Assembly: GCA_963829245.1 (NCBI GenBank)
Contig: CAWHIM010000042.1
Coordinates: forward strand, 2,703-66,702
DNA: 64,000 bases
From: an uncultured bacterium
GTDB taxonomy: Bacteria > Desulfobacterota > Deferrimicrobia > Deferrimicrobiales > Deferrimicrobiaceae
Reading direction: 5' to 3'
Shown here: positions 12,091 to 30,906 of the stretch, one piece after another
Position numbering within the stretch: the first letter of the stretch is position 1
Layout: every line of letters begins with the position of its first letter
Notes under the pieces: generated by a model
Told to the model about the DNA's origin: nothing
Database searches by the model: none
Seen by the model: only the letters and a program-made list of their open reading frames with translations
Made by a program: the position numbers and the translations under genes

Positions 12091-12474
12091 TTACCGCAAG
12101 AGGGTCCATATTTTGTATAAGGTCATGATGACGATGAGGACGCCGAACAGCTGCTTGATCCGTGCGCTCGGCATGTAAAGGCTGGTGATGCGGGCGCCGG
12201 CGAACGAGCCGGCCGCTCCGGCGACCAGGAGCACCACCGTCAGGGTCGGATCGAAGTGCGCGGTCGCCACGTGGGGAATGAGGGAAGCCAAACACCGAGA
12301 AAAGGGCGGTTACGCCATTCAGGAGAAGGCTCAGGGGCTGCACCTGGTGCACCAGGTCGGGGAGGAAACAGTCCGAGGAAGGGAATGGCCGCGAAGGCGA
12401 CCCCCAGCCCGAGCATGCCGGATACGACGGCAGAACAGGGTCAAGCCGGCCGTGACAACGATGATCGTTTCCAT
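12091..12474 (-). CDS. TauE/SafE (DUF81)-like small membrane protein, apparently frameshifted
   Basis: N-terminus METIIVVTAGL.. and C-terminal TM region ..AGAAGSFAGARITSLYMP..LFGVLIVIMTLY lie in different frames. Confidence 0.5.
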
Positions 12475-19069: not shown

Positions 19070-20524
19070 CCCTTCACGTTGCCCACCGGGAGCAGGCGGA
19101 CCACCCGCCGGCTGAGCCCCGCGCGCTCCGTGGCCGAGACGACGTCGTCGACGTTCTTGTAGGCGGGGCCCGCCTCCTCGGCGAGGCCGGACCAGCTCGC
19201 CGTCCGTACGTAGATCCCCCGTGCCTCCATCTGCTCCTGGAGCTGGCGCCCGCGGTACCGTTTTCTGGCCGCCGTCCGGCTCATCGCCCGCCCGCTGCCG
19301 TGCGCGGTGGTGAAAAACGTGCAATCGCCGGTGTCGACTCCCGCCAGCAGGTACGATCCGGTCTCCATGCTTCCGCCGAGGATCACCGGCTGGCCCGTCT
19401 TCCGATAGATATCGGGAAGCCCCGGCATCCCGGGACCGAACGCCCGGGTCGCCCCCTTCCGGTGGACGAGCAGTTCCCGCGGTTTCCCCTCGAAGACGTG
19501 CCTCTCGAGCTTGGCCGTGTTGTGCGAGACGTCGTAGACCTGGCGCATCCCGAGGTCCTTCGGATCTTTCCCGAACACCTCGGAGAATACCTCGCGGATC
19601 CGGTGGAGGATGACCTGCCGGTTGGCGAAGGACATGTTGACGGCGCACTTCATCGCGGCGAAGTAGTCCTGCCCCTCAGGAGAGAGGAAAGGGGCGCACG
19701 CCAGCTCCCGATCGGGGACATGGATGCCGTACTTGCCCCGCATCGCCGCGACGAAGACCCGGAGGTAATCGGTCGCCACCTGATGGCCGAACCCCCGGCT
19801 GCCGCAGTGGAACATCACGACCACCTGGTCGGGGAGGACGATGCCGAAGATTCCCGCGGTTTCCCGATCGAATACGTTTTCGGCCCTGGCGACCTGGATC
19901 TCCAGGTAGTGGTTTCCCGACCCCAAGGTGCCGATCTGCCGGTACCCCCGGTCGACCGCTTTCTCGCTCACCCGCGATGCGTCGGCGCCGGGAAGGCACC
20001 CCCCTTCCTCGGTGCGCTCGAGATCCTCCTTCCAGCCGATACCCGCGCTTCACCGCCCACCGGGCCCCCTGTTCCACGGCATCGCGGAACTCGTCCCGGG
20101 AGAGCCGTACGGTTCCCTCGGCGCCCACGCCGGCGGGAACGCGCCCGGCCACGCGGTCCACGAGGTTCCGGAGGCGCGGCTGGACCTCCCCGTACGTCAG
20201 GTTCGTGAGGCAGAGCCGCATCCCGCAGTTGATGTCGAAGCCGATTCCGCCGGGGGAGATCACCCCGTGATCGGGGTCCATCGCGGCGAGGCCGCCGATG
20301 GGGAAACCGTATCCCCAGTGGCCATCGGGCATGCAGCAGGCGTACCCCACGATGCCGGGGAGGGTGGCGACGTTCGTGATCTGTTCGAAGACGCCGTCGT
20401 CGAACTCCGAAAGGAGCGGCTCCGTGGCGAAGATGCGGGCCGGTACGAGCATTCCCGCCTTGTGGGAGACGGGGATCTCCCAGACCGTATCGGAAATCCG
20501 CCGGATATCCTTCGGCACGGTCAC
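19066..20524 (-). CDS. rtcB: RNA-splicing ligase RtcB, frameshift(s) between ~19680-19970
   Basis: RtcB motifs (..GYACCMPDGHWGYGFPIGG.., ..GSRGFGHQVATDYL.., ..HNTAKLE..); GTG start after GGGGGAGG. Confidence 0.8.
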
Positions 20525-20571
20525 GGCGCGCCTCCCCCCGTCGGTATCTCCCTTGATTATATCGCGAGGCG

Positions 20572-21465
20572 TTACGCGACGGGTTCCCTCCGCAGCAGCT
20601 CCTTCCCGACCCAGTGGCCGGCGAACTGGTAAGCGATGCGGCCGCTCCGGTCCCCCTTCCGCTGGGACCACAGGATCGCCTCGTCCCGCGCGTCCTTGGT
20701 CCACGGGAGGCGTGCGCCGTGTTTTTCGCACATCTTCTCCACCCAGCGCCGGACCACCTCGACGTACAGGTCCTGCGAGAACGGGTGGAAGGCGACCCAG
20801 ATTCCGAACCGTCCCGAGAGGGAGATCTTCTCCTCCACGGCCTCCCCGTGGTGGATCTCCCCATCTGCCATCATCGCGCCGCGGTTGTCGCTCTCGTACT
20901 CGGGGACCAGGTGCCTTCGGTTGGAGGTCACATAGATCAGGACGTTTTCCGGCGGCGCGTACACCGAGCCGTCGAGGGCGCTCTTCAGCATCTTGTAGCT
21001 CGACTCCCCCGTTTCGAAGGAGAGGTCGTCGGAGAAGAGGAGGAATTTGTAGGGGAGCCCCTTCACTTCGTCCACGATGGAGGGAAGGTGGACGAGGTCG
21101 TCCTTGTCCACCTGTATGATCCGAAGCCCCCGGGGGGCGTACGCATGGAGGAGCGCCCGCACGAGCGACGATTTCCCGGTGCCGCGCGAACCCCAAAGGA
21201 GGATGTTGTTCGCGGGGAGGCCGGCGAGGAATTGCCGGGTGTTCTCCTCCACCACCCTTTTCTGGTCCTCGATGCCGAGCAGATCCTCCAGGTGAAGGTT
21301 CTCGACGTCTCCGATCGGCTCGAGGTACCCCGAGAAGGAGCGCTTCCGCCAGTTCGCGGCGACGCACTCCTCCCAGTCGATCCGGGGCACGGGGCGCGGC
21401 AGCAACGTCTCAAGGGAGGAAAGCACCCGTTTCAGCTGCGCGGTCAGTTCCGGGTCCAGTTCCAT
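20572..21465 (-). CDS. DUF815-type P-loop ATPase
   Basis: Walker A GSRGTGKSS; AAGGAGAT RBS; directly upstream of rtcB. Confidence 0.7.
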   Translation of the reverse strand: MELDPELTAQLKRVLSSLETLLPRPVPRIDWEECVAANWRKRSFSGYLEPIGDVENLHLEDLLGIEDQKRVVEENTRQFLAGLPANNILLWGSRGTGKSSLVRALLHAYAPRGLRIIQVDKDDLVHLPSIVDEVKGLPYKFLLFSDDLSFETGESSYKMLKSALDGSVYAPPENVLIYVTSNRRHLVPEYESDNRGAMMADGEIHHGEAVEEKISLSGRFGIWVAFHPFSQDLYVEVVRRWVEKMCEKHGARLPWTKDARDEAILWSQRKGDRSGRIAYQFAGHWVGKELLRREPVA

Positions 21466-21656: not shown

Positions 21657-22532
21657 TTATGACCCCGTGAACAGGGGCGATTTCCGGACGAGGTCTCCGG
21701 CGAGGGAGTGAAGTTCCTCACGGAGGCTCCCATCGAGCGCCTGCAGCCACCTTTGCGGGATCGCGGCGAGCCCGTACCTGGCGCCCGCGATCGCGCCGGC
21801 GATGGACCCCGTCGTGTCCGCGTCGCCCCCCCGGTTCACCGTTTTCACGATGCAATCCTCGAAGTTGTCCGTGGAGAAGAAGGCGTCGAATACCGTCCGA
21901 AGCGTGTCCACCACGTAGGCGGACGAATTGCCCTCATACCCCTCGAAGCGGAACTCCGGGTGCCGGGAGGCCAATTCTTCCGCCGCCGCCCGCAGCTCGC
22001 GCAGCGGCGCGCCGAGAAGGCCCCGCTGGATCAACGTTCCCACCGACGCGCACGCCGCATCGGACAGAGGGTGGTGGTGGGTGATGCGCGCCTGCTCGAT
22101 CGCGAGGCGGGAGAGAAGTTTCTCGTTCCCGAGCGTGTAGAGCGCGACCGGAGCGACCCGCATCGCCGCGCCGTTTCCCGCCCCCCGCTCGTCGAGGGGC
22201 GCTTCAAGCCGCCCTTTTTCCATGTACTCCTCGATCCCCCGACGGCAGGTGGCCCCCACGTCGGCGGGATCCCCCGACAGCCAATGGGCAAACCGTTCCG
22301 CGATCGGCGCGAGATCCCACCGTTCCGATCGGACGATCCCCCTGGCGATGCAAAGCGTCATTTCCGTGTCGTCGGTGACCTGTCCCGGCGGCAACTTCAA
22401 CCAGCCCCCGCCGACGATCTCCCGGAGGACGCCGAACCGGTCCCGGATCTGCGCCGGCGTCATGAACTCGGTCGTGGCGCCCAGTGCGTCCCCCACGGCG
22501 CCGCCCAGAAGGGCGGCGCGCGCCCGGTCCAC
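21657..22532 (-). CDS. draG: ADP-ribosyl-[dinitrogen reductase] glycohydrolase DraG
   Basis: DraG-specific blocks GATCRRGIEEYME..GAGNGAAMR, ARITHHHPLSDAAC, VNRGGDADTTGSIAGAIAGARYG. Confidence 0.8.
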   Translation of the reverse strand: MDRARAALLGGAVGDALGATTEFMTPAQIRDRFGVLREIVGGGWLKLPPGQVTDDTEMTLCIARGIVRSERWDLAPIAERFAHWLSGDPADVGATCRRGIEEYMEKGRLEAPLDERGAGNGAAMRVAPVALYTLGNEKLLSRLAIEQARITHHHPLSDAACASVGTLIQRGLLGAPLRELRAAAEELASRHPEFRFEGYEGNSSAYVVDTLRTVFDAFFSTDNFEDCIVKTVNRGGDADTTGSIAGAIAGARYGLAAIPQRWLQALDGSLREELHSLAGDLVRKSPLFTGS

Positions 22533-22569
22533 GATCCCGGCCGCGCCGGGGGGGCTTTCCTTCGCGGAT

Positions 22570-23365
22570 TCAATAGCTCCTCACGGTCACTTCGAAATCC
22601 CCGCCGATCACCATCGCCTCCTCCTCGCCCCTGGGAAGGACGCCCGGGAGGAGGTCCGAGCGGAAGAAGATCTTGGCGGCGGGGACGTCGGCATCGAAGA
22701 CGTTATCCCCCGAACTGCCACGCGTGCTCGATCCGGGAAGAGAAGGAGTTGAGGTTGTTCAACCGGACCACGGCGCGGTTCCCTCCGGGGTTCTCGAGAA
22801 CCCGATAATCCGCGAGGTTGCGGACTCCCCGGTACAAGGTGAAGGAGAGGACTCCCGGATGCCGCCGTCGCAGTTCGTCCTGGACGAACTCGTAGAGAAG
22901 GTCGAACTGCGCCTCCACGGCGTTCGTCCGAGCGCTTTCCCGCATCCGCTCGGCGAGGTAGAGGAGGTACTCCCTCGAATCGATCCCCTCGATCCGGCCG
23001 GCATGGAAGACCGGGGGAAGGCCGAAGCGGCTCTCCACCCATCCTTTCAGCACCGCCCCCTCCGCCGAACTCGCGTCGAGCATCCATCCGCGGAGGAACC
23101 GGAGGTAACTGTTCCGGAGCGACCGGCGGCCGAGGGGGGTCGTTTCCCGCCGCCATTTTTCGGTTTGAAAGACCAGGTCGATGTAGTCCCGGAAGCACCG
23201 TTGCCGCCCCGCGGGGTCGGCGAGGCGTTCAAGACGGGAGAAAAAGGATTGGTGGGCGCGTCGGACCCCCTGGATCTCGAGAGGGAGGGGGTGCCGGTTG
23301 AAGCGGGACGACGCGATCACCCAGGGGGGTTGGTCGCAACGGTTTACCGGAAGGGTATCGGTGCC
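22570..23365 (-). CDS. draT: NAD+--dinitrogen-reductase ADP-ribosyltransferase DraT (frameshift near 22700)
   Basis: DraT blocks RSLRNSYLRFLRGW, VEGAVLKGWVESRFGL, LYEFVQDELRRRHP, LNNLNSFSS; C-terminal ~45 aa (..EEEAMVIGGDFEVTVRSY) continue in another frame. Confidence 0.75.
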
Positions 23366-23496
23366 CATCCGCTCATGATACCACCGGGAACGGAGGACCT
23401 TGTTTGCATCGTTCCGGCGGTTCGGTGCGGCCCTTGGACCTTTGGTATTCATGTATATTGATTCCTGGCGGCAATACCGGCGGGACGGTGATTTCG

Positions 23497-24750
23497 ATGC
23501 GCCCTGTTCTTCCCACGATCCTGCGGGTGGTTCTGCTCTCCTTCCTGCTCCTGTCCTCGGGAGCGATCCTCTACGTGACCGCGTTCAATGCGCAAACGGT
23601 CCGTTCCCTCGCCGAACGGTCTCTCGAAAGCACGGCGCTGGCGATTTCCGCTTCCGCGGAAAGCGCCCTCCGGACGGGTGGAGATCGCCTCGATCCCCGG
23701 ATCCGCGAAATCCTGTCCGACCGGGTTGTCGCCTACGCGTTGATCGCCCGGGGGGACGGGACGGTCCTGTTCCACACCAACACCAGGCTGGTCGGCCGCG
23801 TCCTGAAGGAAGACGGACTGCAGTCCTGGATGCGGAGCGGCCGGCCGTACGGGCGAAGGTTGACGCTGGGAACCGGATTGCCGGCCTACGAGTACAATTA
23901 CATCCTTCACCGCCCTGACGGCGGGGCGGAACTTCTTCGACTGGTGATTCATACGGCGAAGGCGGATCTCCTTCTTGAGGGTGTTCGGCGGATGTGGTGG
24001 ACGGTCGGGGTGGTTGTCGTTTTTCTGTGGAGCGTCGGTGTCGCCCTGGAACGGACCCTGACCCGCCATGTACGGCTCCAGGAGGAGGCGGGCCGGCGGG
24101 AGCGGTTGGCGCTCATAGGGCAGATGACCGCCACGTTGTCGCACGAGATCCGGAATGCTCTCGGAAGCGTCAAGGGGTACACCCAGTGGGTGGATGAAAA
24201 GTTCGATCCTTCGGATCCCAGGAAACAGGGGCTTGCGTTCGCCTTGAAGGGGACGGAGCGGATCGAGTCCCTTGTGAACGAGCTTCTTCTTTATGCCCGG
24301 CAGGAAAGCTTCGACATCGAACCGGTGGACCCTCCTCGGCTGATCGAGCCCCTGGTCAGGGAGGAAACCTCCGGGTGGGCCGGAACCGTCGAAACGGATT
24401 TCGGAGATACCGGCCGCGTGATGGCCGATCCGGAGAAGCTGCGACGGGTCCTGTCCAACGGCATACGGAACGCGATACAGGCGATGGGAGGGGGAGGCGC
24501 CTTGAAGATTTCCGCAAGCACCGATGGGCGGACCGTCCGGATCCGGATCGAGGACACGGGCCCGGGGATCCCCGAGTCGGAGCGGGAGCGCCTGTTCAGC
24601 CCGTTCCACACGACCAAGACCGATGGAACGGGCTTGGGGTTGGCTTATTCGCGAAAGGTGATTGAAGGGTTGCACGGCCGTATCGAACTCCGCAACCGGG
24701 AGGGCCGGAGCGGAGCCGTTCTTGAAATCCTCCTCCCGAAGGAAAGGTGA
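23497..24750 (+). CDS. sensor histidine kinase (two TM helices, HisKA + HATPase)
   Basis: H-box LSHEIRNAL, G-boxes DTGPGI and GTGLGL. Confidence 0.8.
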   Translation: MRPVLPTILRVVLLSFLLLSSGAILYVTAFNAQTVRSLAERSLESTALAISASAESALRTGGDRLDPRIREILSDRVVAYALIARGDGTVLFHTNTRLVGRVLKEDGLQSWMRSGRPYGRRLTLGTGLPAYEYNYILHRPDGGAELLRLVIHTAKADLLLEGVRRMWWTVGVVVVFLWSVGVALERTLTRHVRLQEEAGRRERLALIGQMTATLSHEIRNALGSVKGYTQWVDEKFDPSDPRKQGLAFALKGTERIESLVNELLLYARQESFDIEPVDPPRLIEPLVREETSGWAGTVETDFGDTGRVMADPEKLRRVLSNGIRNAIQAMGGGGALKISASTDGRTVRIRIEDTGPGIPESERERLFSPFHTTKTDGTGLGLAYSRKVIEGLHGRIELRNREGRSGAVLEILLPKER

Positions 24751-24757
24751 CGCCGCC

Positions 24758-26086
24758 ATGCCGAAAACCATCCTGGTCGTAGACGACGACGAGATGATGC
24801 GCTCGTTCCTCTCCACCATTCTCAGGGAGGAGGGATACGTGGTGGAGGAGGCGGGGAGCGGGAAGCAGGCGCTGGAGAACCTCCATCGCTCGGAGTTCGA
24901 CCTGGTCGTCACGGACCTCCGGATGCCGGACCTCTCCGGAGTGGAAGTGATCCGTGAAGGCCGGAAGGTACGCCCCGATGCCCGATGGATCATCGTGACG
25001 GCGTACGGTTCGATCGGCAGTGCGGTGGAAGCGATGCAGGGCGGCGCATCCGATTATCTGACGAAACCGTTCCGGGACCCCGATGAGTTGCGCCACGTCG
25101 TTCGACGTGTGTTGAGGGAAGCCGAAGCGGAAACGAGGATCTCGCTCCTCTCGGAGGAAATCGGAAGTCGGTTCCCTCCGGTCGAGATGATTTTTCTCGG
25201 GGAGGGAATGGCGGAGGTCCACCGGTTGGTCCGGGAAGTCGCCCCGACGACCGCCACCGTCCTCGTTACGGGCCAAAGCGGTACGGGAAAGGAGTTGGTC
25301 GCCCGGGTGATCCACGCCCTCAGCCCAAGGAAGGAGAAGCCGTTTGTGGCGATCCACTGCTCCGCGTTGGCGGAAGCCCTTCTTGAGAGCGAACTGTTCG
25401 GTCATGAACGAGGGGCTTTTACCGGCGCCGCCGGGACCAGGAAAGGCAGGTTTGAGCTTGGGGATGGCGGAACGATCTTCCTGGACGAGATCGGTGACAT
25501 CTCCCCCGTGGTGCAGGTGAAACTCCTGCGAGTGCTCCAGGAAAGGTGCTTCGAGCGTGTCGGAGGGGCGCGGTCCATTGCAGTGGATGTCCGCATCGTG
25601 GCGGCGACCCACCGGAACCTCAAGGCGGAAGTCGCCGCCGGGCGTTTCCGGGAGGATCTGTATTACCGGCTCAATGTGTTCCCGGTCGAACTCCCGCCGC
25701 TCTCCGAACGCAGGGAGACCATCGTACTGCTGGCGGAGTTTTTCGCCGGGAAGTTCGCCGCTGCTTTCGGGAAGAAGGTCACGGGGTTCTCCCCGGATGC
25801 GACCCGTGCCCTCCGCCAATACGCATGGCCGGGAAACGTCCGGGAACTGCAGAACGTGATCGAGCGGGCTGTGATCCTGGCTTCCGGGGAGATCGACCTC
25901 CGGCATCTGAAACTGGATCTTGCCGTGGAAACCCCCGTCGAGGGTGAAGGGACATTGCGGACGAACGAGCGGGAGACGATCCGGAAGGTTCTTGCGGACA
26001 CCGCCGGAAACCGCACGCAGGCAGCCCGGATCCTCGGCATTTCACTTCGAACCCTCCAGTATCGGATCAAGGAATACGGCCTGTAG
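24758..26086 (+). CDS. sigma54-dependent response regulator (NtrC family)
   Basis: Receiver domain (VVDDDE..D), AAA+ sigma54-activator domain with GAFTGA motif, C-terminal Fis-type HTH. Confidence 0.9.
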   Translation: MPKTILVVDDDEMMRSFLSTILREEGYVVEEAGSGKQALENLHRSEFDLVVTDLRMPDLSGVEVIREGRKVRPDARWIIVTAYGSIGSAVEAMQGGASDYLTKPFRDPDELRHVVRRVLREAEAETRISLLSEEIGSRFPPVEMIFLGEGMAEVHRLVREVAPTTATVLVTGQSGTGKELVARVIHALSPRKEKPFVAIHCSALAEALLESELFGHERGAFTGAAGTRKGRFELGDGGTIFLDEIGDISPVVQVKLLRVLQERCFERVGGARSIAVDVRIVAATHRNLKAEVAAGRFREDLYYRLNVFPVELPPLSERRETIVLLAEFFAGKFAAAFGKKVTGFSPDATRALRQYAWPGNVRELQNVIERAVILASGEIDLRHLKLDLAVETPVEGEGTLRTNERETIRKVLADTAGNRTQAARILGISLRTLQYRIKEYGL

Positions 26087-26200
26087 AGGGTGCACGTTTT
26101 GCGCGGCGGCACGCAACGGCTGCGCATCCGGGCGTCGAAGGATCGCAGTACATGATTTGTAAGTCCTTGCATCTAGAGGTGTTCATGAAGTGAAAAGAAA

Positions 26201-26216
26201 TGGCATCGTCCTTGCT
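26201..26216 (+). promoter_or_regulatory. sigma54 (-24/-12) promoter TGGCAT-N5-TTGCT
   Basis: GG at 26202-26203 and GC at 26214-26215 with canonical spacing, ~40 nt upstream of the RBS/start of the secreted-protein gene at 26259. Confidence 0.6.
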
Positions 26217-26258
26217 CCTTCCTCGGGCAGCAGTCAACATTCGAAGGAGGTAAGGAAG

Positions 26259-26570
26259 ATGAAGACAAAGCTTGGCGCGGCGATTCTGACGGGGGTGTTT
26301 CTGGTCACTTCGGCGATCACGGTCATGGCCGCGGGGCCGGCAGGCAGAGGCAGCATGAGTGGGACGGCGCTCCGGACAGGAAGCCGGTCCCAGACCATGA
26401 ACGGGGTCCAGATGCGGCAGCGGCTGCGCGACGGGTCTTGCCTCGACCCGTCGAAGGCAGGCGCCGCTGGAAAAACGATGAAGAGGGGGAACACCTATGG
26501 CCCTGGCGATGGAACGGGACCGTATCTTCCGAAGGACGGGACCGGATTCGGTGCTCCTTCGAACCGGTGA
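26259..26570 (+). CDS. small secreted protein of unknown function
   Basis: AGGAGG RBS, signal peptide MKTKLGAAILTGVFLVTSAITVMA, Gly/Arg-rich mature part. Confidence 0.5.
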   Translation: MKTKLGAAILTGVFLVTSAITVMAAGPAGRGSMSGTALRTGSRSQTMNGVQMRQRLRDGSCLDPSKAGAAGKTMKRGNTYGPGDGTGPYLPKDGTGFGAPSNR

Positions 26571-26577
26571 AACGGGT

Positions 26578-27129
26578 GTGGCGGGAAGGAGCGGGGCGGC
26601 GGGAGCCGTCCTGCTCCTGTTCCTCGCGGCCCTGGTGTCGTTCTCTTACTTTCCGGCGGCGGCGCACGCCGCGGAATCCGGGACGATCCTGGAAGGAAGC
26701 GGGATCCATTACCCGGGGGGTTTCGACCCCAACACTACCGGCGAGATCCGGGGGAGGGCATCCGGGCTTACCATTCCGAAGGAGGGGCCTGTACGCTTCC
26801 GACTGGACACCGGGCAGGAGAATTACACCGTCCTCGCATCCCCTCCTTGGTATTGGAAGGACCTTGGGATCAATCTTCCCGACGGATCCGAGGTTCTGGT
26901 CCGTGGCTCGAAGACTCTCGGCAAGGATATGAATCTCTACGTCATCGCACAGGAAATTCGCCTCCTTTCCTCGAGAAAATCCTGGACCCTGCGGGACGAG
27001 GATGGGTTTCCGCACTGGAAAGGGCAGGGGGGTGCGGGGAGCGGGAACGGCACGGGGGGAATCTCCCCCATGCGGCGCGGCGGAGGCGGCGGGGGCGGCG
27101 GAACGGGCGGCGGCGGTCGGCGGAGGTAA
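26578..27129 (+). CDS. secreted protein with Gly-rich C-terminus (start uncertain)
   Basis: Signal-peptide-like LLLFLAALVSFSYFPAAAHA then a globular part; GTG start inferred. Confidence 0.4.
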   Translation: MAGRSGAAGAVLLLFLAALVSFSYFPAAAHAAESGTILEGSGIHYPGGFDPNTTGEIRGRASGLTIPKEGPVRFRLDTGQENYTVLASPPWYWKDLGINLPDGSEVLVRGSKTLGKDMNLYVIAQEIRLLSSRKSWTLRDEDGFPHWKGQGGAGSGNGTGGISPMRRGGGGGGGGTGGGGRRR

Positions 27130-27163
27130 GGCGACATCGGAATACGATCAAGGAGCTCCCAGG

Positions 27164-28036
27164 ATGCGAAGATCTTTGTCTTTCATCATACGGGTGTTAG
27201 CGGGGACGGCTCTTCTTTCGCCCGGGAATGTTTCCGCCGGATGGGAAACCGGGGCGAAGGCGGGGTTCGAAACGAACGTCAATCGATCGGTCGTCGACGG
27301 GGAGAGCGATACCTACCTTCTTGGGTACGGAGCGTATCTCCGGCGGGGGGATGGCGAGCATCGGCTGGACTGGACGTTTTCGGCCGTGTTCGAAGGGGTT
27401 GCGTACGCCAAGGCGGACGGCATGGATTACGGCTCGGTGTCGTTGGCGCCGGGTGCGATCTACGTCGTACGCCCCGGGTGGACCGTCAACATCTCACCGT
27501 TTCTTCAGGCGAAAACGGTGCGAGACACGGATCAGTCTTCCTGGGCGTTCGGAGCCAGGGCGGATCTCCGGCAGGAATTCCTGGAGAAACTGTATCTGGG
27601 CGAATTCCTCTCCTATACCGACAGCCGGGCCAATGCGGATACCTATTCCTACAGGGAAGTCGCAACCGGGGCCCTCTTCGGAGTGAACTGGACCTCGGCA
27701 ACGTTCACCGAAATCGGATATCGGTATTCCCATGGGGATTCCTTCCTTTCCGTGGGGACCGATTCATCCTCTTCGGGGGGCGGCGGCGGGGGCGGTGCGG
27801 GTTCCGGCGGCGGGGGCCCCGGGTTCCAGGGTGGGACGGACCGCCGCTATTCATCGACGTTCGGGAACGAGGTCGTGAAGGATCTCGTGGACACCCATTC
27901 GGTTGAGATCTCGGCGGGGATCGACTGGACCCGCTCGGTTTTTTCCGTCGCGAGCTTCGCCTGGCAGGCAACGCGAGGAGACGTCGGGACAGCGAGGAGC
28001 CGGTCCGGATATGCGGGAATAGGGTACCGTTTCTGA
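27164..28036 (+). CDS. putative outer-membrane beta-barrel protein
   Basis: Signal peptide, alternating amphipathic beta-strand pattern, terminal ..IGYRF; internal Gly-rich loop. Confidence 0.5.
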   Translation: MRRSLSFIIRVLAGTALLSPGNVSAGWETGAKAGFETNVNRSVVDGESDTYLLGYGAYLRRGDGEHRLDWTFSAVFEGVAYAKADGMDYGSVSLAPGAIYVVRPGWTVNISPFLQAKTVRDTDQSSWAFGARADLRQEFLEKLYLGEFLSYTDSRANADTYSYREVATGALFGVNWTSATFTEIGYRYSHGDSFLSVGTDSSSSGGGGGGGAGSGGGGPGFQGGTDRRYSSTFGNEVVKDLVDTHSVEISAGIDWTRSVFSVASFAWQATRGDVGTARSRSGYAGIGYRF

Positions 28037-28074
28037 CGGATCGCCCGCGGGGTTCCCGGTGACCGGGGCGCGGC

Positions 28075-28918
28075 CTACTTCACCGCTCCCATCGTGAAGC
28101 CGGCGACGAACCGGTCCAGGAAGAAGGTGTAGACCACGGCCACCGGGAGGCTGGCGATCAGCGCCCCGGCCATGAGCGGCCCCCACTGGAACACGTCGCC
28201 GCGGACAAGTTCCTCCGGGACTCCGATGGATACGGTCTTCTTCAACGACATGGAAATGAAGGTCAGCGCGTAGATGAACTCGTGCATCGAGAGGGTGAAG
28301 GCGAACACCACGACCGTCAGGATCCCCGAGATCGAAAGCGGCAGTACGACCTTCCACATCGCCCCGAACCGGCTCAATCCGTCGATCATCGCCTGCTCCT
28401 CGATGTCCTTCGGGATCGTCTTGAAGAACCCCATCAGCAGCCACGTGCAGAAGGGGATCGTGAAGGTCGGGTAGACGAGGATCAGGGACCAGAGCGACTC
28501 CTGAAGCCCCAGGAAGGCGGTGAAGCGCGACAGAGGGATGAACAGGATCGTCGGAGGAACGAGGTACGTGAGGAAGATCCCGATCCCGAGCATCTCTCCC
28601 CAACCCCGCGCCCACCGGGCCAGGGCGTACGCCGCCGGCACGGCGACGATCAGCGTGATGACGACGACCACGAGGCCGACCGCCAGCGTGTTCCAGAGGT
28701 ACGTGAGGTAGTGGGTCTGGAAGAGGAGCAGTCTTCAGGTGGTCCAGCGTGGCCGGTTCGTTGAAGAGGAACGGGTTGTTCAACGGGGTGAAGAGGTCGT
28801 GATCCGTCTTGAACGTCGCGATCACCATCCAGTAGAAGGGGAAGGCGCAGAAGAAGACGAACATCCCCAGCAGCGTGTACAGCCCTCCGCGGCTTGCGAG
28901 CTTCCTGATGTTCGGCAT
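28075..28918 (-). CDS. carbohydrate ABC transporter permease (MalG/UgpE-like), frameshifted
   Basis: EAA-loop region and 6-TM pattern; N-terminus MPNIRKLASRGGLYTLLGMF.. is in a different frame. Confidence 0.7.
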
Positions 28919-29860
28919 CAGACCACCTCCGTCCTTCGTGCCATCCGAAGAATGAGGATCGCGACCGCGGCGAGCACCGGGAACATGAAGAGGGAGATCG
29001 CCGCCCCCTCCGCCAGGTTCCCGCCCTCGATCCCCCGGAAGAAGGTCCAGGTGGAGAGCACCTGGGTGGTGTTCACGGGCCCCCCCCGGGTCAGGACGTA
29101 GACGACGACCAGGTCGGTGAAGGTGAAGACGACCCCGAAGAGAAAGGCGATGCTCGTGATGGGAAGGGTGAGCGGGATCGTGATCTTCAGGGTCCGGCGC
29201 CACGGGGTGGCCCCGTCCACCTCGGCGGCCTCCAGGAGGTCCTTGGGGATGGAGCTCAATCCCGCCAGCTGGATCACCGTCGCCAGGGGCAGGATCCGCC
29301 AGACGTCGACGAGGATGACCGAGGAGATCGCCAGCCCGGGGACCCCCAGGTAGTAGAGGTTCGTCCCCGCTCCAAGGAGGGCGCCCGGGGCGCCGAGCAG
29401 TCCGACGTAGCGCAGGACCCAGTCGATGGGGCTGAAGATCGAGTCGAACATCCAGAGCCAGCCGATCACCCCGAGGGAGATCGGCGCGGTCCACGGGAGC
29501 ATGATGAGGAACCGGACGAGCCACTTCCCGCGGAACTGTCTTGAGCAGGGCGGTGGCGAGCAGCCGGGACAGAAGGACGACGATGCACTGGGAAATCAGC
29601 GTGAAGAAGACGGTGTTCCACAGGGAAAGCCGGAAGACGGGATCTCTCCAGCGCCGCGGCGAAGTTCCGCAGGCCGACGATATGGATGGAGGGGTCCCCG
29701 GTGGTGGCGTCGCTCAGGGAGTACAGGATCGCCAGGACGAAGGGGACGCCGATCATCGCCACGATGTAGAGGATCGCGGGGGCGATCATCAGCTTCGCGA
29801 GGGCGCCTTCCCGGTCCAGGATCCCCGCCGCGCGGCGCCGTCGGCCGCCGGGATCGAAAC
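28918..29860 (-). CDS. carbohydrate ABC transporter permease (MalF/UgpA-like), frameshifted, start approximate
   Basis: N-terminus ..LMIAPAILYIVAMIGVPF.. and C-terminal permease domain are in two frames. Confidence 0.6.
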
Positions 29861-29871
29861 CGGCGGCCCGC

Positions 29872-30906
29872 TCAAGACGGCCCCCCTTCCTTCTTGCAGA
29901 GCCCGCTCTTCTTGTCGAAGCGGCGCAGATCCCTCAAGGCCACCGCGAAGGGGTACGTCTTTCCCGCCTCCAGCGGCAGGGTGAGGGATCCCGGAAGGCG
30001 GGAGACGACGTGGCGGGCGTGGGACTTCTCCCCGACCGTGCCGTACACGAGCCGCTCGGCTCCAAGGTACTCGAGGTACGTCACCTCGAAGGGGTAGGTC
30101 ACGACCCCCTCCGACCCCTCGACGGCGTCGGCGGGAAGGAACGTCTCCGGGCGGAAGCCCAGGAGGGTGTCACCCTGGTCGAGGAGGTTCATCGGGGGGG
30201 ACCCGACGAAGGTCGCCACGAAGGTATCCGCGGGCCACAGGTAGATATCCATCGGCGTGCCGATCTGCCGGATCTTCCCCTGGCTCATCACCACGATCCG
30301 GTCTCCCAGCCCCATCGCCTCGACCTGGTCGTGGGTGACGTAGATGGTGGTGACCCCGACCCGCCGCTGGAACTGCCGAAGCTCCTCCCGTGCCGAGGTG
30401 CGCAGGAGGGCGTCAAGGTTGGACAGCGGCTCGTCGAGCAGGAAAACGCTGGGCTCCCGGACCATGGCGCGGGCCAGCGCCACGCGCTGCCGCTCCCCCC
30501 CGAGAGTTCGCGCGGCTTCCGGTCGAGCAGGCGCCCGATCTTGAACATTCCCGCCGCCCACTCGACCTTTTTCCGGACCGCCTCCTTTTCCACTCCCCGG
30601 GCGCGCAGCGGAAAGGCGATGTTCTTGTACACCGTCATGTGGGGATAGAGGGCGTAGCTCTGGAAGACCATGGCGATGTCCCGCATCCGGGGCGGCAGGT
30701 GCGTGACCACCCGACCGTCGATGACCATCTCCCCTTCGGTCGGCTCCTCGATCCCGGCGATCATCCGCAGGAGGGTGGTCTTCCCGCACCCCGAGGGGCC
30801 GAGGAGGACCAGGAACTCTCCCTCGTTGGTCGCGAGGTCGACGTGGTCGACCGCCCGCGATGTTCCCGAACAGTTTCGATATGCCACGGATTTCCACACA
30901 CCCCAT
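29872..30906 (-). CDS. ABC transporter ATP-binding protein (MalK/UgpC-like), multiple frameshifts
   Basis: Walker [10 protein letters not shown], signature [14 protein letters not shown], Walker [12 protein letters not shown]-terminal TOBE domain; N-terminus switches frame twice. Confidence 0.75.

Follow-up and report, generated by a model that had tools for sequence, protein, structure and literature searches.

A putative sigma-54-controlled envelope module encoded together with its own two-component system in an uncultured Deferrimicrobiaceae bacterium

The stretch of DNA considered here, 64,000 nucleotides (nt) of contig CAWHIM010000042.1 from an uncultured bacterium of the Deferrimicrobiaceae (hereafter the window, to which all positions refer unless a locus is named), harbors at 23497-28036 five co-directional genes, which encode a sensor histidine kinase, an NtrC-family response regulator and three exported proteins designated P3, P4 and P5, with a candidate tandem enhancer and a predicted sigma-54 promoter lying between the regulator gene and that of P3. 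An initial annotation had seen in this arrangement a dedicated kinase and enhancer-binding protein wired to three exported envelope proteins, a proposal supported by the conserved gene order, the promoter and the tandem enhancer described below, and the element positions it had given were borne out to within one base. The features (with protein lengths in amino acids, aa, and the evidence for each in brackets) are:

23497-24750, + strand: sensor histidine kinase, 417 aa (Pfam HisKA, HATPase_c, weak sCache_3_2)
24758-26086, + strand: NtrC-family response regulator/sigma-54 enhancer-binding protein, 442 aa (Pfam REC, AAA+, HTH_8)
26091-26103, no strand: putative enhancer (upstream activator sequence) site 1, TGCA-CGTTT-TGCG (cross-locus comparison)
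26112-26124, no strand: putative enhancer (upstream activator sequence) site 2, CGCA-ACGGC-TGCG (cross-locus comparison)
26201-26216, + strand: predicted sigma-54 promoter, -24 TGGCAT/-12 TTGCT (consensus match and conservation)
26259-26570, + strand: P3, small secreted protein, 103 aa (ribosome-binding site, signal peptide, conserved motifs)
26497-27129 (start ambiguous), + strand: P4, modelled periplasmic OB-fold protein (AlphaFold, Foldseek, homologues)
27164-28036, + strand: P5, modelled outer-membrane beta-barrel, 290 aa (AlphaFold, Foldseek, beta-signal)

For comparison, 54 loci were gathered from genomes and metagenomes via homologues of P4, their metagenome-assembled genomes (MAGs) being labelled as Ca. 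Deferrimicrobium, “Deltaproteobacteria”, Smithella, Syntrophus, Syntrophorhabdaceae, Desulfobacterales and, in one case, Nitrospirae; such taxonomy labels are unreliable, and some of the loci contain assembly frameshifts, with the tblastn matches of the kinase or the regulator split in the manner typical of assembly indels in L007, L008, L015 and L023. Profiling of the five-gene cluster, which the initial annotation had suggested as a check, showed that the order kinase, regulator, P3 (where present), P4 and P5 is kept in nearly all loci long enough to judge (tblastn with the five window proteins), that this synteny spans MAGs labelled as Ca. Deferrimicrobium, Syntrophia, Desulfobacterales and Nitrospirae, and that the genes of P3, P4 and P5 are usually adjacent.

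The kinase has two transmembrane segments flanking a periplasmic domain of ~130 aa, which are followed by HisKA (Pfam E = 7e-12) and HATPase_c (4e-24) domains, the H-box reading LSHEIRNAL in the translation. The N-terminal extracytoplasmic part gives a weak match to sCache_3_2 (0.0035), and a set of 38 orthologues shows the periplasmic domain to be conserved. Only residues 185-416, i.e., the kinase core, align to the top NCBIfam models, AtoS and ZraS, and the equivalog cut-offs are missed throughout (174 bits vs. 646 for AtoS, 159 vs. 479 for ZraS and 64 vs. 240 for NtrB), while the matches found by PDB sequence search (ThkA, ZraS) do not extend beyond the cytoplasmic core. The regulator shows the make-up of an NtrC-family enhancer-binding protein, namely a receiver (REC) domain with the phospho-acceptor Asp (Response_reg, 1e-30; the REC stretch DLVVTDLRMPD is seen in the translation), an AAA+ domain (Sigma54_activat, 2e-69, and AAA_lid_14) with an intact Walker A motif, GQSGTGKE, and an intact GAFTGA loop for contact with sigma-54, and a Fis-type helix-turn-helix (HTH_8, 8e-14). 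The designation “NtrC-type” that the system had initially been given is thus appropriate as far as domain architecture goes, but does not extend to NtrC proper, as the regulator stays below the curated cut-offs of NtrC (TIGR01818, 414.8 bits vs. 558.6), ZraR (NF007689, 435.1 vs. 760) and AtoC (NF008469, 454.4 vs. 714) alike. Judging by their intact domains and motifs, the kinase and the regulator are a competent pair.

The predicted promoter, TGGCATCGTCCTTGCT (26201-26216), spells TGGCAT-CGTCC-TTGCT, fits TGGCAC-N5-TTGCW at 10 of 11 positions and is the one site in the window, both strands considered, that matches TGGCAY-N5-TTGCW, where dinucleotide-preserving shuffles lead one to expect 0.02 matches; allowing one mismatch still yields no further match within the 64 kb. 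The near-consensus -24/-12 element that had been noticed directly after the regulator gene is, moreover, not peculiar to this window: such an element lies between the regulator gene and the next gene in all 45 of the 45 loci retaining the regulator (L039 included), with TGGCAT-ccTCc-TTGCT as the consensus of the promoter family. In the related loci it usually begins 115-134 nt past the last regulator codon aligned by tblastn, and the gap to the start codon, where the first gene can be called, is usually 32-69 nt, with L047 as the one outlier. The corresponding distance in the window, from the motif to the P3 ATG at 26259, had been put at about 40 nt and measures 43 nt, with the ribosome-binding site GGAGG at 26246-26250 (8 nt before the ATG) and the predicted transcription start at ~26227. 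With GG and GC 10 nt apart, a gene downstream, and an activator and an enhancer nearby, the element has the hallmarks of a sigma-54 promoter, its activity being a prediction. Transcription from a sigma-70 promoter had been named at the outset as a finding that would speak against this arrangement, and no sigma-70-like promoter was found in 23000-28600; nor was a terminator-like hairpin detected after the regulator gene.

The enhancer emerged when the upstream regions of the loci were aligned, as a tandem YGCA-N5-TGCR pattern with 21 base pairs (bp) as the dominant spacing. Two TGCA-N5-TGCA palindromes whose centres are 21 bp (two helical turns) apart are present in 37 of 39 loci, as opposed to the 0.56 loci with two sites expected from shuffles, and they lie 83-115 nt upstream of the -24 T. 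In the window, they occupy 26091-26124, immediately past the regulator stop codon, with the centre of site 1 ~104 nt upstream of the T in TGGCA, and this tandem pattern is unique in the 64 kb (0 expected). In L035 and L052, whose promoters are more distant from the regulator gene, the palindromes keep their usual distance to the promoter, and L053 and L054 show the same arrangement of tandem palindrome and promoter. A search for upstream activator sequences had also been among the initially suggested checks, and these palindromes, ~100 bp upstream of the promoter, are its outcome; an inverted-repeat search in the window alone gave weak, ambiguous pairs only, and it is because of the cross-locus comparison that the enhancer became clear. 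The IHF consensus is not significantly enriched between enhancer and promoter (6 loci vs. 2.8 expected, with a shuffle maximum of 9), this spacer merely being AT-richer. Elsewhere in the window, a perfect palindrome, TGCACCTGGTGCA (12339-12351), resembles a classical NtrC-type half-site pair and is solitary, i.e., without a tandem partner.

We regard it as very probable, given this positioning and its conservation, that the kinase and the regulator act via the enhancer on the sigma-54 promoter of a P3-P5 operon, a unit of cis-encoded activator, enhancer and sigma-54 promoter being arguably near the strongest case that can be made from sequence alone.

As regards the products of the presumed operon, it had been stated initially that none of the three has recognizable homology, which holds insofar as P3 and P5 are without a Pfam family and searches of P3, P4 and P5 against Pfam and NCBIfam returned nothing above threshold (only a weak MamS match for P4), but does not hold insofar as all three belong to conserved families (at least 740, 269 and 143 relatives, respectively) and P4 appears remotely related to MamS/MamX. 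P3 consists of a Sec-type signal peptide and a Gly/Gln/Thr/Arg-rich low-complexity middle, with two motifs conserved in the alignment, RLRDGSC (which holds the single Cys) and the C-terminal GNTYGPGDGTG..P.DGTGYGAP.NR, and is a small secreted protein, probably a disordered one. Its relatives, as collected by a profile search, number at least 740, not one of them carrying a Pfam domain, and its orthologue is the first gene past the promoter in ~31 loci.

Three starts can be considered for P4, ATG 26497 (overlapping the end of P3), GTG 26551 and GTG 26578, all leading to the stop at 27129; ATG 26497 has the best ribosome-binding site and is also the start called in the 98%-identical database protein P0001 (a 210-aa product), and a start upstream of 26578 is likely because homologues conserve an N-terminal RR[T/I/M]G, a motif that misfits the twin-arginine (Tat) consensus S/T-RRxFLK. 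Behind a long signal peptide, the protein continues with the conserved segment SGIxYPGGFDPNT and an OB-fold core, and it closes with a disordered Gly-rich tail whose last residues are RRR; a role of this tail as a PEP-CTERM or GlyGly-CTERM sorting signal was rejected by eye, no hydrophobic helix preceding the RRR. Structure prediction of the three proteins had been another of the suggested checks, and for P4 and P5 it gave an OB fold and an outer-membrane barrel, respectively (AlphaFold models of monomers). The core of P4 is modelled with a pLDDT above 90 and the tail as disordered, the strands (54-65, 73-77, 82-86, 105-114 and 120-129) and the helix (90-95) being those of an OB fold, and Foldseek retrieves the OB domains of LysRS, ExoVII and Stn1 (E ~5e-5); P4 is, on these models, a periplasmic OB-fold protein. 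The residues invariant in the alignment are Trp, Tyr, Phe, Asp and Gly, including the aromatics W91, W93, W147, Y83 and Y121, and the tail is Gly/Met-rich in most relatives.

Most of the 269 P4 homologues have a precomputed match to PF26390 (MamS_MamX), which is weak for P0021 and carries no such mark (E up to 1e-5) for the L053 orthologue. The Pfam copy searched here seemingly came without this model, as it gave no match even for L003 7490-7951, which is precomputed as PF26390 (likewise unmarked). MamS is the sole NCBIfam family matched by the P4 family (12 of 38 members, best E = 2.3e-4), with the window P4 itself reaching E = 0.2 and 12 bits against an equivalog cut-off of 200 bits; a PDB sequence search with the P4 profile found no meaningful match, and Pfam BOF gave none at E up to 1. 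By these sequence matches, P4 appears to be a remote relative of the OB domain of MamS and MamX, which are magnetosome iron-biomineralisation proteins that have been predicted as OB folds (PMC3905215). Common to both (PF26390; NCBIfam NF040991) is a predicted extracytoplasmic OB fold behind an N-terminal hydrophobic segment (PMC3905215), and some P4 relatives sit with a dihaem cytochrome c and a CDF transporter, which echoes the haem domains of MamX and the CDF proteins MamB/MamM; the P4 locus differs, however, in having neither a magnetochrome domain nor a magnetosome gene island, and the SGIxYPGGFDPNT segment, like the Gly-rich RRR tail, is a peculiarity of the P4 family.

A further parallel is offered by the enterobacterial BOF proteins YgiW and YdeI/OmdA, which are small periplasmic OB-fold stress proteins tied to two-component systems. 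YdeI associates with an outer-membrane porin, and this is mirrored by P4 being encoded beside the P5 barrel. Regulation there is of the sigma-70 OmpR type, whereas it would be sigma-54-dependent here, and P5 seems to be a dedicated, co-transcribed partner rather than a general porin. MamS itself has been modelled on YgiW (PMC3905215).

P5 has a signal peptide with the conserved cleavage motif A-x-A|GWETG (..VSA|GWETG) and is modelled (pLDDT 87, pTM 0.78) with 12 long strands and a disordered Gly-rich loop at residues 200-219. The beta-barrel ending in GYRF, as first described, ends in the beta-signal GIGYRF, in which F290 never varies and at least 90% of the family share G287, Y288 and R289; the signal peptide, the even strand number and the C-terminal aromatic beta-signal are all as expected of an outer-membrane barrel. 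Foldseek returned 308 PDB matches at E up to 1e-3, those listed being outer-membrane barrels at a probability of 1.0, with a COG4313 channel (4RL8) giving the best TM-score (0.58), and OmpG, CymA, chitoporin, FapF and autotransporter beta-domains also among them. The likeness to such small barrels is one of fold and size, with an identity of 8-15% only, no plug or passenger domain evident, and a long Gly-rich loop that is P5-family-specific. The family comprises 143 proteins in a word-indexed search and 144 representatives among 1.84 billion in an exhaustive hidden Markov model (HMM) search, and has no Pfam assignment even among its distant members, which give sub-threshold matches to OMP_b-brl (at most 26 bits vs. 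the 28.7 cut-off), BBP2_2 or DUF2860. P5 is, by confident modelling, an outer-membrane barrel of ~12 strands, and an envelope location of the exported proteins can be considered highly likely. One protein from the exhaustive search, P0364 (476 aa), was taken up as a possible Rosetta-stone fusion of P4 and P5 and was rejected as a frameshift artefact, because its P4 sequence breaks into frameshift-derived basic junk before a normal P5.

Among 115 co-directional neighbouring open reading frames (ORFs) of the compared loci, the Pfam families encountered include the CDF Cation_efflux family (6, the commonest), ZT_dimer (5, the second domain of the same CDF transporters), dihaem cytochrome c (4) and Nramp (2). 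In L022, a CDF gene begins 9 nt past P5 and is followed by Nramp, and several low-GC loci have an extended operon that reads P3, dihaem cytochrome c, an unassigned membrane protein whose C-terminus is His-rich, P4, NfeD and CDF. Operons enlarged by these four genes (the cytochrome being of PF09626) occur in L027, L039, L040, L041, L045 and L052 (e.g., L052 3878-8170), P5 being kept in L041 and L045 and missing from L027, L039, L040 and L052. The Deferrimicrobium clade that is devoid of P3 encodes a very Met-rich 500-aa protein downstream of P5; the same clade has a second sigma-54-like motif, TGGCACGTCCTATGCT, upstream of the kinase (L001 2020-3083; L019 near 844), with no obvious TGCA-N5-TGCA pair near it, and in L001 it is followed by the genes of two small secreted proteins (101 and 158 aa), with an RND (ACR_tran) gene further upstream. 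In L003, a second, shorter MamS_MamX protein (153 aa, with GGGGGMGG near its N-terminus) and an FGE-sulfatase-domain protein are encoded directly after P5 (7490-8755); a ferritin gene follows some 3 kb further on, and the upstream region encodes a TonB-dependent receptor and DUF4198.

Divalent-cation handling is the sole recurrent functional theme that these neighbours suggest, and both the Gly/Met-rich P4 tails and the apparent MamS/MamX kinship point in the same direction. The reading that we favor, and hold to be reasonably probable as a whole, is that of a self-contained envelope signalling unit, most plausibly responsive to divalent metals and analogous to ZraPSR. The kinase would sense a periplasmic or envelope cue via its conserved Cache-like domain and phosphorylate the NtrC-family regulator, which, once phosphorylated, would assemble on the two TGCA-N5-TGCA palindromes just past its own stop codon and, from ~100 bp upstream, remodel the sigma-54 RNA polymerase held at TGGCAT-N5-TTGCT (26201-26216), thus switching on a single operon of three exported proteins. 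P3, P4 and P5 would then act together in the periplasm and the outer membrane, P4 and P3 possibly as periplasmic binders or chaperones and P5 as an outer-membrane conduit or anchor, in an inducible response to an envelope insult, most plausibly an excess of divalent metal. Taken separately, the metal-related (or envelope-stress) role is the tentative part of this reading, and one that may well turn out otherwise.

The closest functional analogue is the sigma-54 envelope/zinc stress system ZraS/ZraR/ZraP of Escherichia coli and Salmonella, in which a membrane kinase with a periplasmic sensor and an NtrC-family activator likewise serve the sigma-54 promoter of a periplasmic effector in a compact circuit of essentially a single target. 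For the window proteins, ZraS and ZraR rank with the top curated models by score, the leading PDB matches include the ZraS kinase core, and ZraP, too, has a Gly/Met-rich tail. The scores nevertheless stay far from equivalence (159 vs. 479 bits for the kinase and 435 vs. 760 for the regulator), the sensor has no sequence match to that of ZraS, and the effectors (an OB fold, a barrel and a small peptide) are unrelated to ZraP/CpxP/Spy, with no helical LTXXQ-type match in Pfam or NCBIfam for P3, P4 or P5 at E up to 1; furthermore, the window operon is co-directional with and downstream of the regulator gene, whereas the zraP arrangement is divergent.

Several observations weigh against the metal-responsive, three-protein unit proposed here. 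The extended operons of Syntrophia type lack P5 and a clade of Deferrimicrobium lacks P3, so that P3-P5 are not an obligate trio; the linkage of P4 is partly ascertained by design, as the loci were picked by P4 homology. Metal-transporter neighbours occur in only ~15% of the loci, and the window operon is not adjoined by any, DraT, an ADP-ribosylglycohydrolase, DUF815 and an ABC transporter in convergent orientation being encoded there instead. No His, Cys or Met is conserved within the fold of P4, an argument against a classical metal site that would suit a glycan, peptide or protein ligand just as well, and the window P4 tail is nearly Met-free. Binding of the regulator to the palindromes and activation of the promoter are, besides, deduced from position and conservation, and the signal and the biochemical role of P3-P5 are proposals. 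A more far-reaching version, in which P4 and the two-component system would form the conserved core, with P3 and P5 as frequent partners, of a hitherto unrecognized periplasmic Fe(II)/divalent-metal handling system of anaerobic sediment bacteria, sigma-54-induced by periplasmic metal and connected with part of the magnetosome toolkit (the MamS/MamX OB domain, a haem redox partner and a MamB/M-type CDF) as its non-magnetotactic relative or its evolutionary source, is speculative and seems unlikely.

Two other roles for the exported proteins deserve to be weighed, neither of which we deem likely. P3 could be the cargo, P4 the periplasmic chaperone and P5 the dedicated channel of a curli/Fap-like secretion or assembly module that brings P3 to the cell surface, with the two-component system timing its deployment. 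Such a module would suit the low-complexity, Q/T-rich stretches and the sharply conserved C-terminal signature of P3, the resemblance of P5 to 12-stranded secretion barrels, including FapF and autotransporter beta-domains, and the mostly adjacent and presumably co-transcribed genes of P3, P4 and P5. However, one clade keeps P4-P5 without P3 and others keep P3-P4 without P5, a pattern that is hard to square with an obligate cargo-channel pair; moreover, the Foldseek matches of P5 are generic barrels with TM-scores of at most 0.6, and P3 does not have the repeat structure typical of amyloid subunits. The other possibility, to which we attach a similarly low probability, is substrate uptake, whereby P5 would be a specific channel and P4 a binding or escort protein for an oligosaccharide or organic solute sensed by the kinase. 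OB folds commonly bind oligosaccharides (PMC3905215), and the invariant surface residues of P4 are aromatic; the top structural matches of P5 include the channels CymA, chitoporin, OmpG and COG4313, and a Cache-like kinase sensor is typical of small-molecule sensing. The neighbour survey, however, linked no inner-membrane importer or catabolic genes consistently, the recurrent neighbours being cation transporters and a cytochrome instead, and the ABC transporter adjoining the window operon runs in convergent orientation and belongs to none of the families that recur in the co-directional survey.

That the pair is a genuine nitrogen regulator NtrB/NtrC with P3-P5 as nitrogen-regulated targets, as the NtrC architecture of the regulator and the divergent DraT (22703-23452) and ADP-ribosylglycohydrolase genes adjoining the kinase might suggest, is very improbable, true NtrBC being contradicted by the scores (415 vs. 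559 bits for NtrC and 64 vs. 240 for NtrB), by the sensor topology (NtrB is cytoplasmic, whereas the window kinase has a periplasmic sensor) and by draTG linkage not being conserved, as it was not seen among the surveyed neighbours of other loci, while the P3-P5 linkage is near universal. Hardly more credible is a fortuitous -24/-12 element, with P3-P5 expressed by read-through from the regulator gene (they are co-directional, start only 172 nt downstream of it and are not set apart by a detectable terminator-like hairpin) or from an unrecognised sigma-70 promoter (no such site was seen in 23000-28600), given the 0.02 matches expected per window and the fact that 45 of 45 loci have the element, its distance to the start codon being fixed and a conserved enhancer accompanying it.

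The surroundings of the operon in the window merit a brief description. The draT/draG-like pair (21657-23452, minus strand) diverges from the kinase gene, the start codons being only ~44 nt apart, and consists of the genes of DRAT (dinitrogenase reductase ADP-ribosyltransferase, 22703-23452, E = 1e-79) and the ADP-ribosylglycohydrolase (21657-22532, E = 1e-72), which implies post-translational nitrogenase control in the host. Next to it lies a DUF815 AAA ATPase gene (20572-21465, minus strand, E = 3e-102), and downstream of it what looks by eye like RtcB sequence lies in an overlapping ORF (19676-21367). On the other side, the convergent ABC transporter genes (28075-30906, minus strand) are seemingly frameshifted, the BPD_transp_1 permease ORFs being only 198 and 194 aa long, with permease N-terminal-like sequence in another frame and the ATPase split over ORFs 30288-30899 and 29872-30906; these are either pseudogenes or the result of assembly indels.

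The type of circuit (two-component system, enhancer-binding protein and sigma-54) is a known one, and what sets it apart is the widely conserved envelope module that it would control; a text-term scan of the D. vulgaris sigma-54 regulome paper (PMC4641369) turned up no comparable regulon. Three exported families are linked in ~50 sampled loci, each family having hundreds of relatives in uncultured anaerobes labelled as Ca. Deferrimicrobium/MBNT15, Syntrophia, Desulfobacterales and Nitrospirae. With one sensor, one activator, one enhancer, one promoter and one operon, the locus is an unusually tractable entry point, as its movable promoter and enhancer could reveal the inducing signal and, through it, a function for three families at once. 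Should the metal link prove true, this would be a new type of periplasmic metal-stress system, and it would provide a context for the MamS/MamX OB domain outside magnetotactic bacteria.

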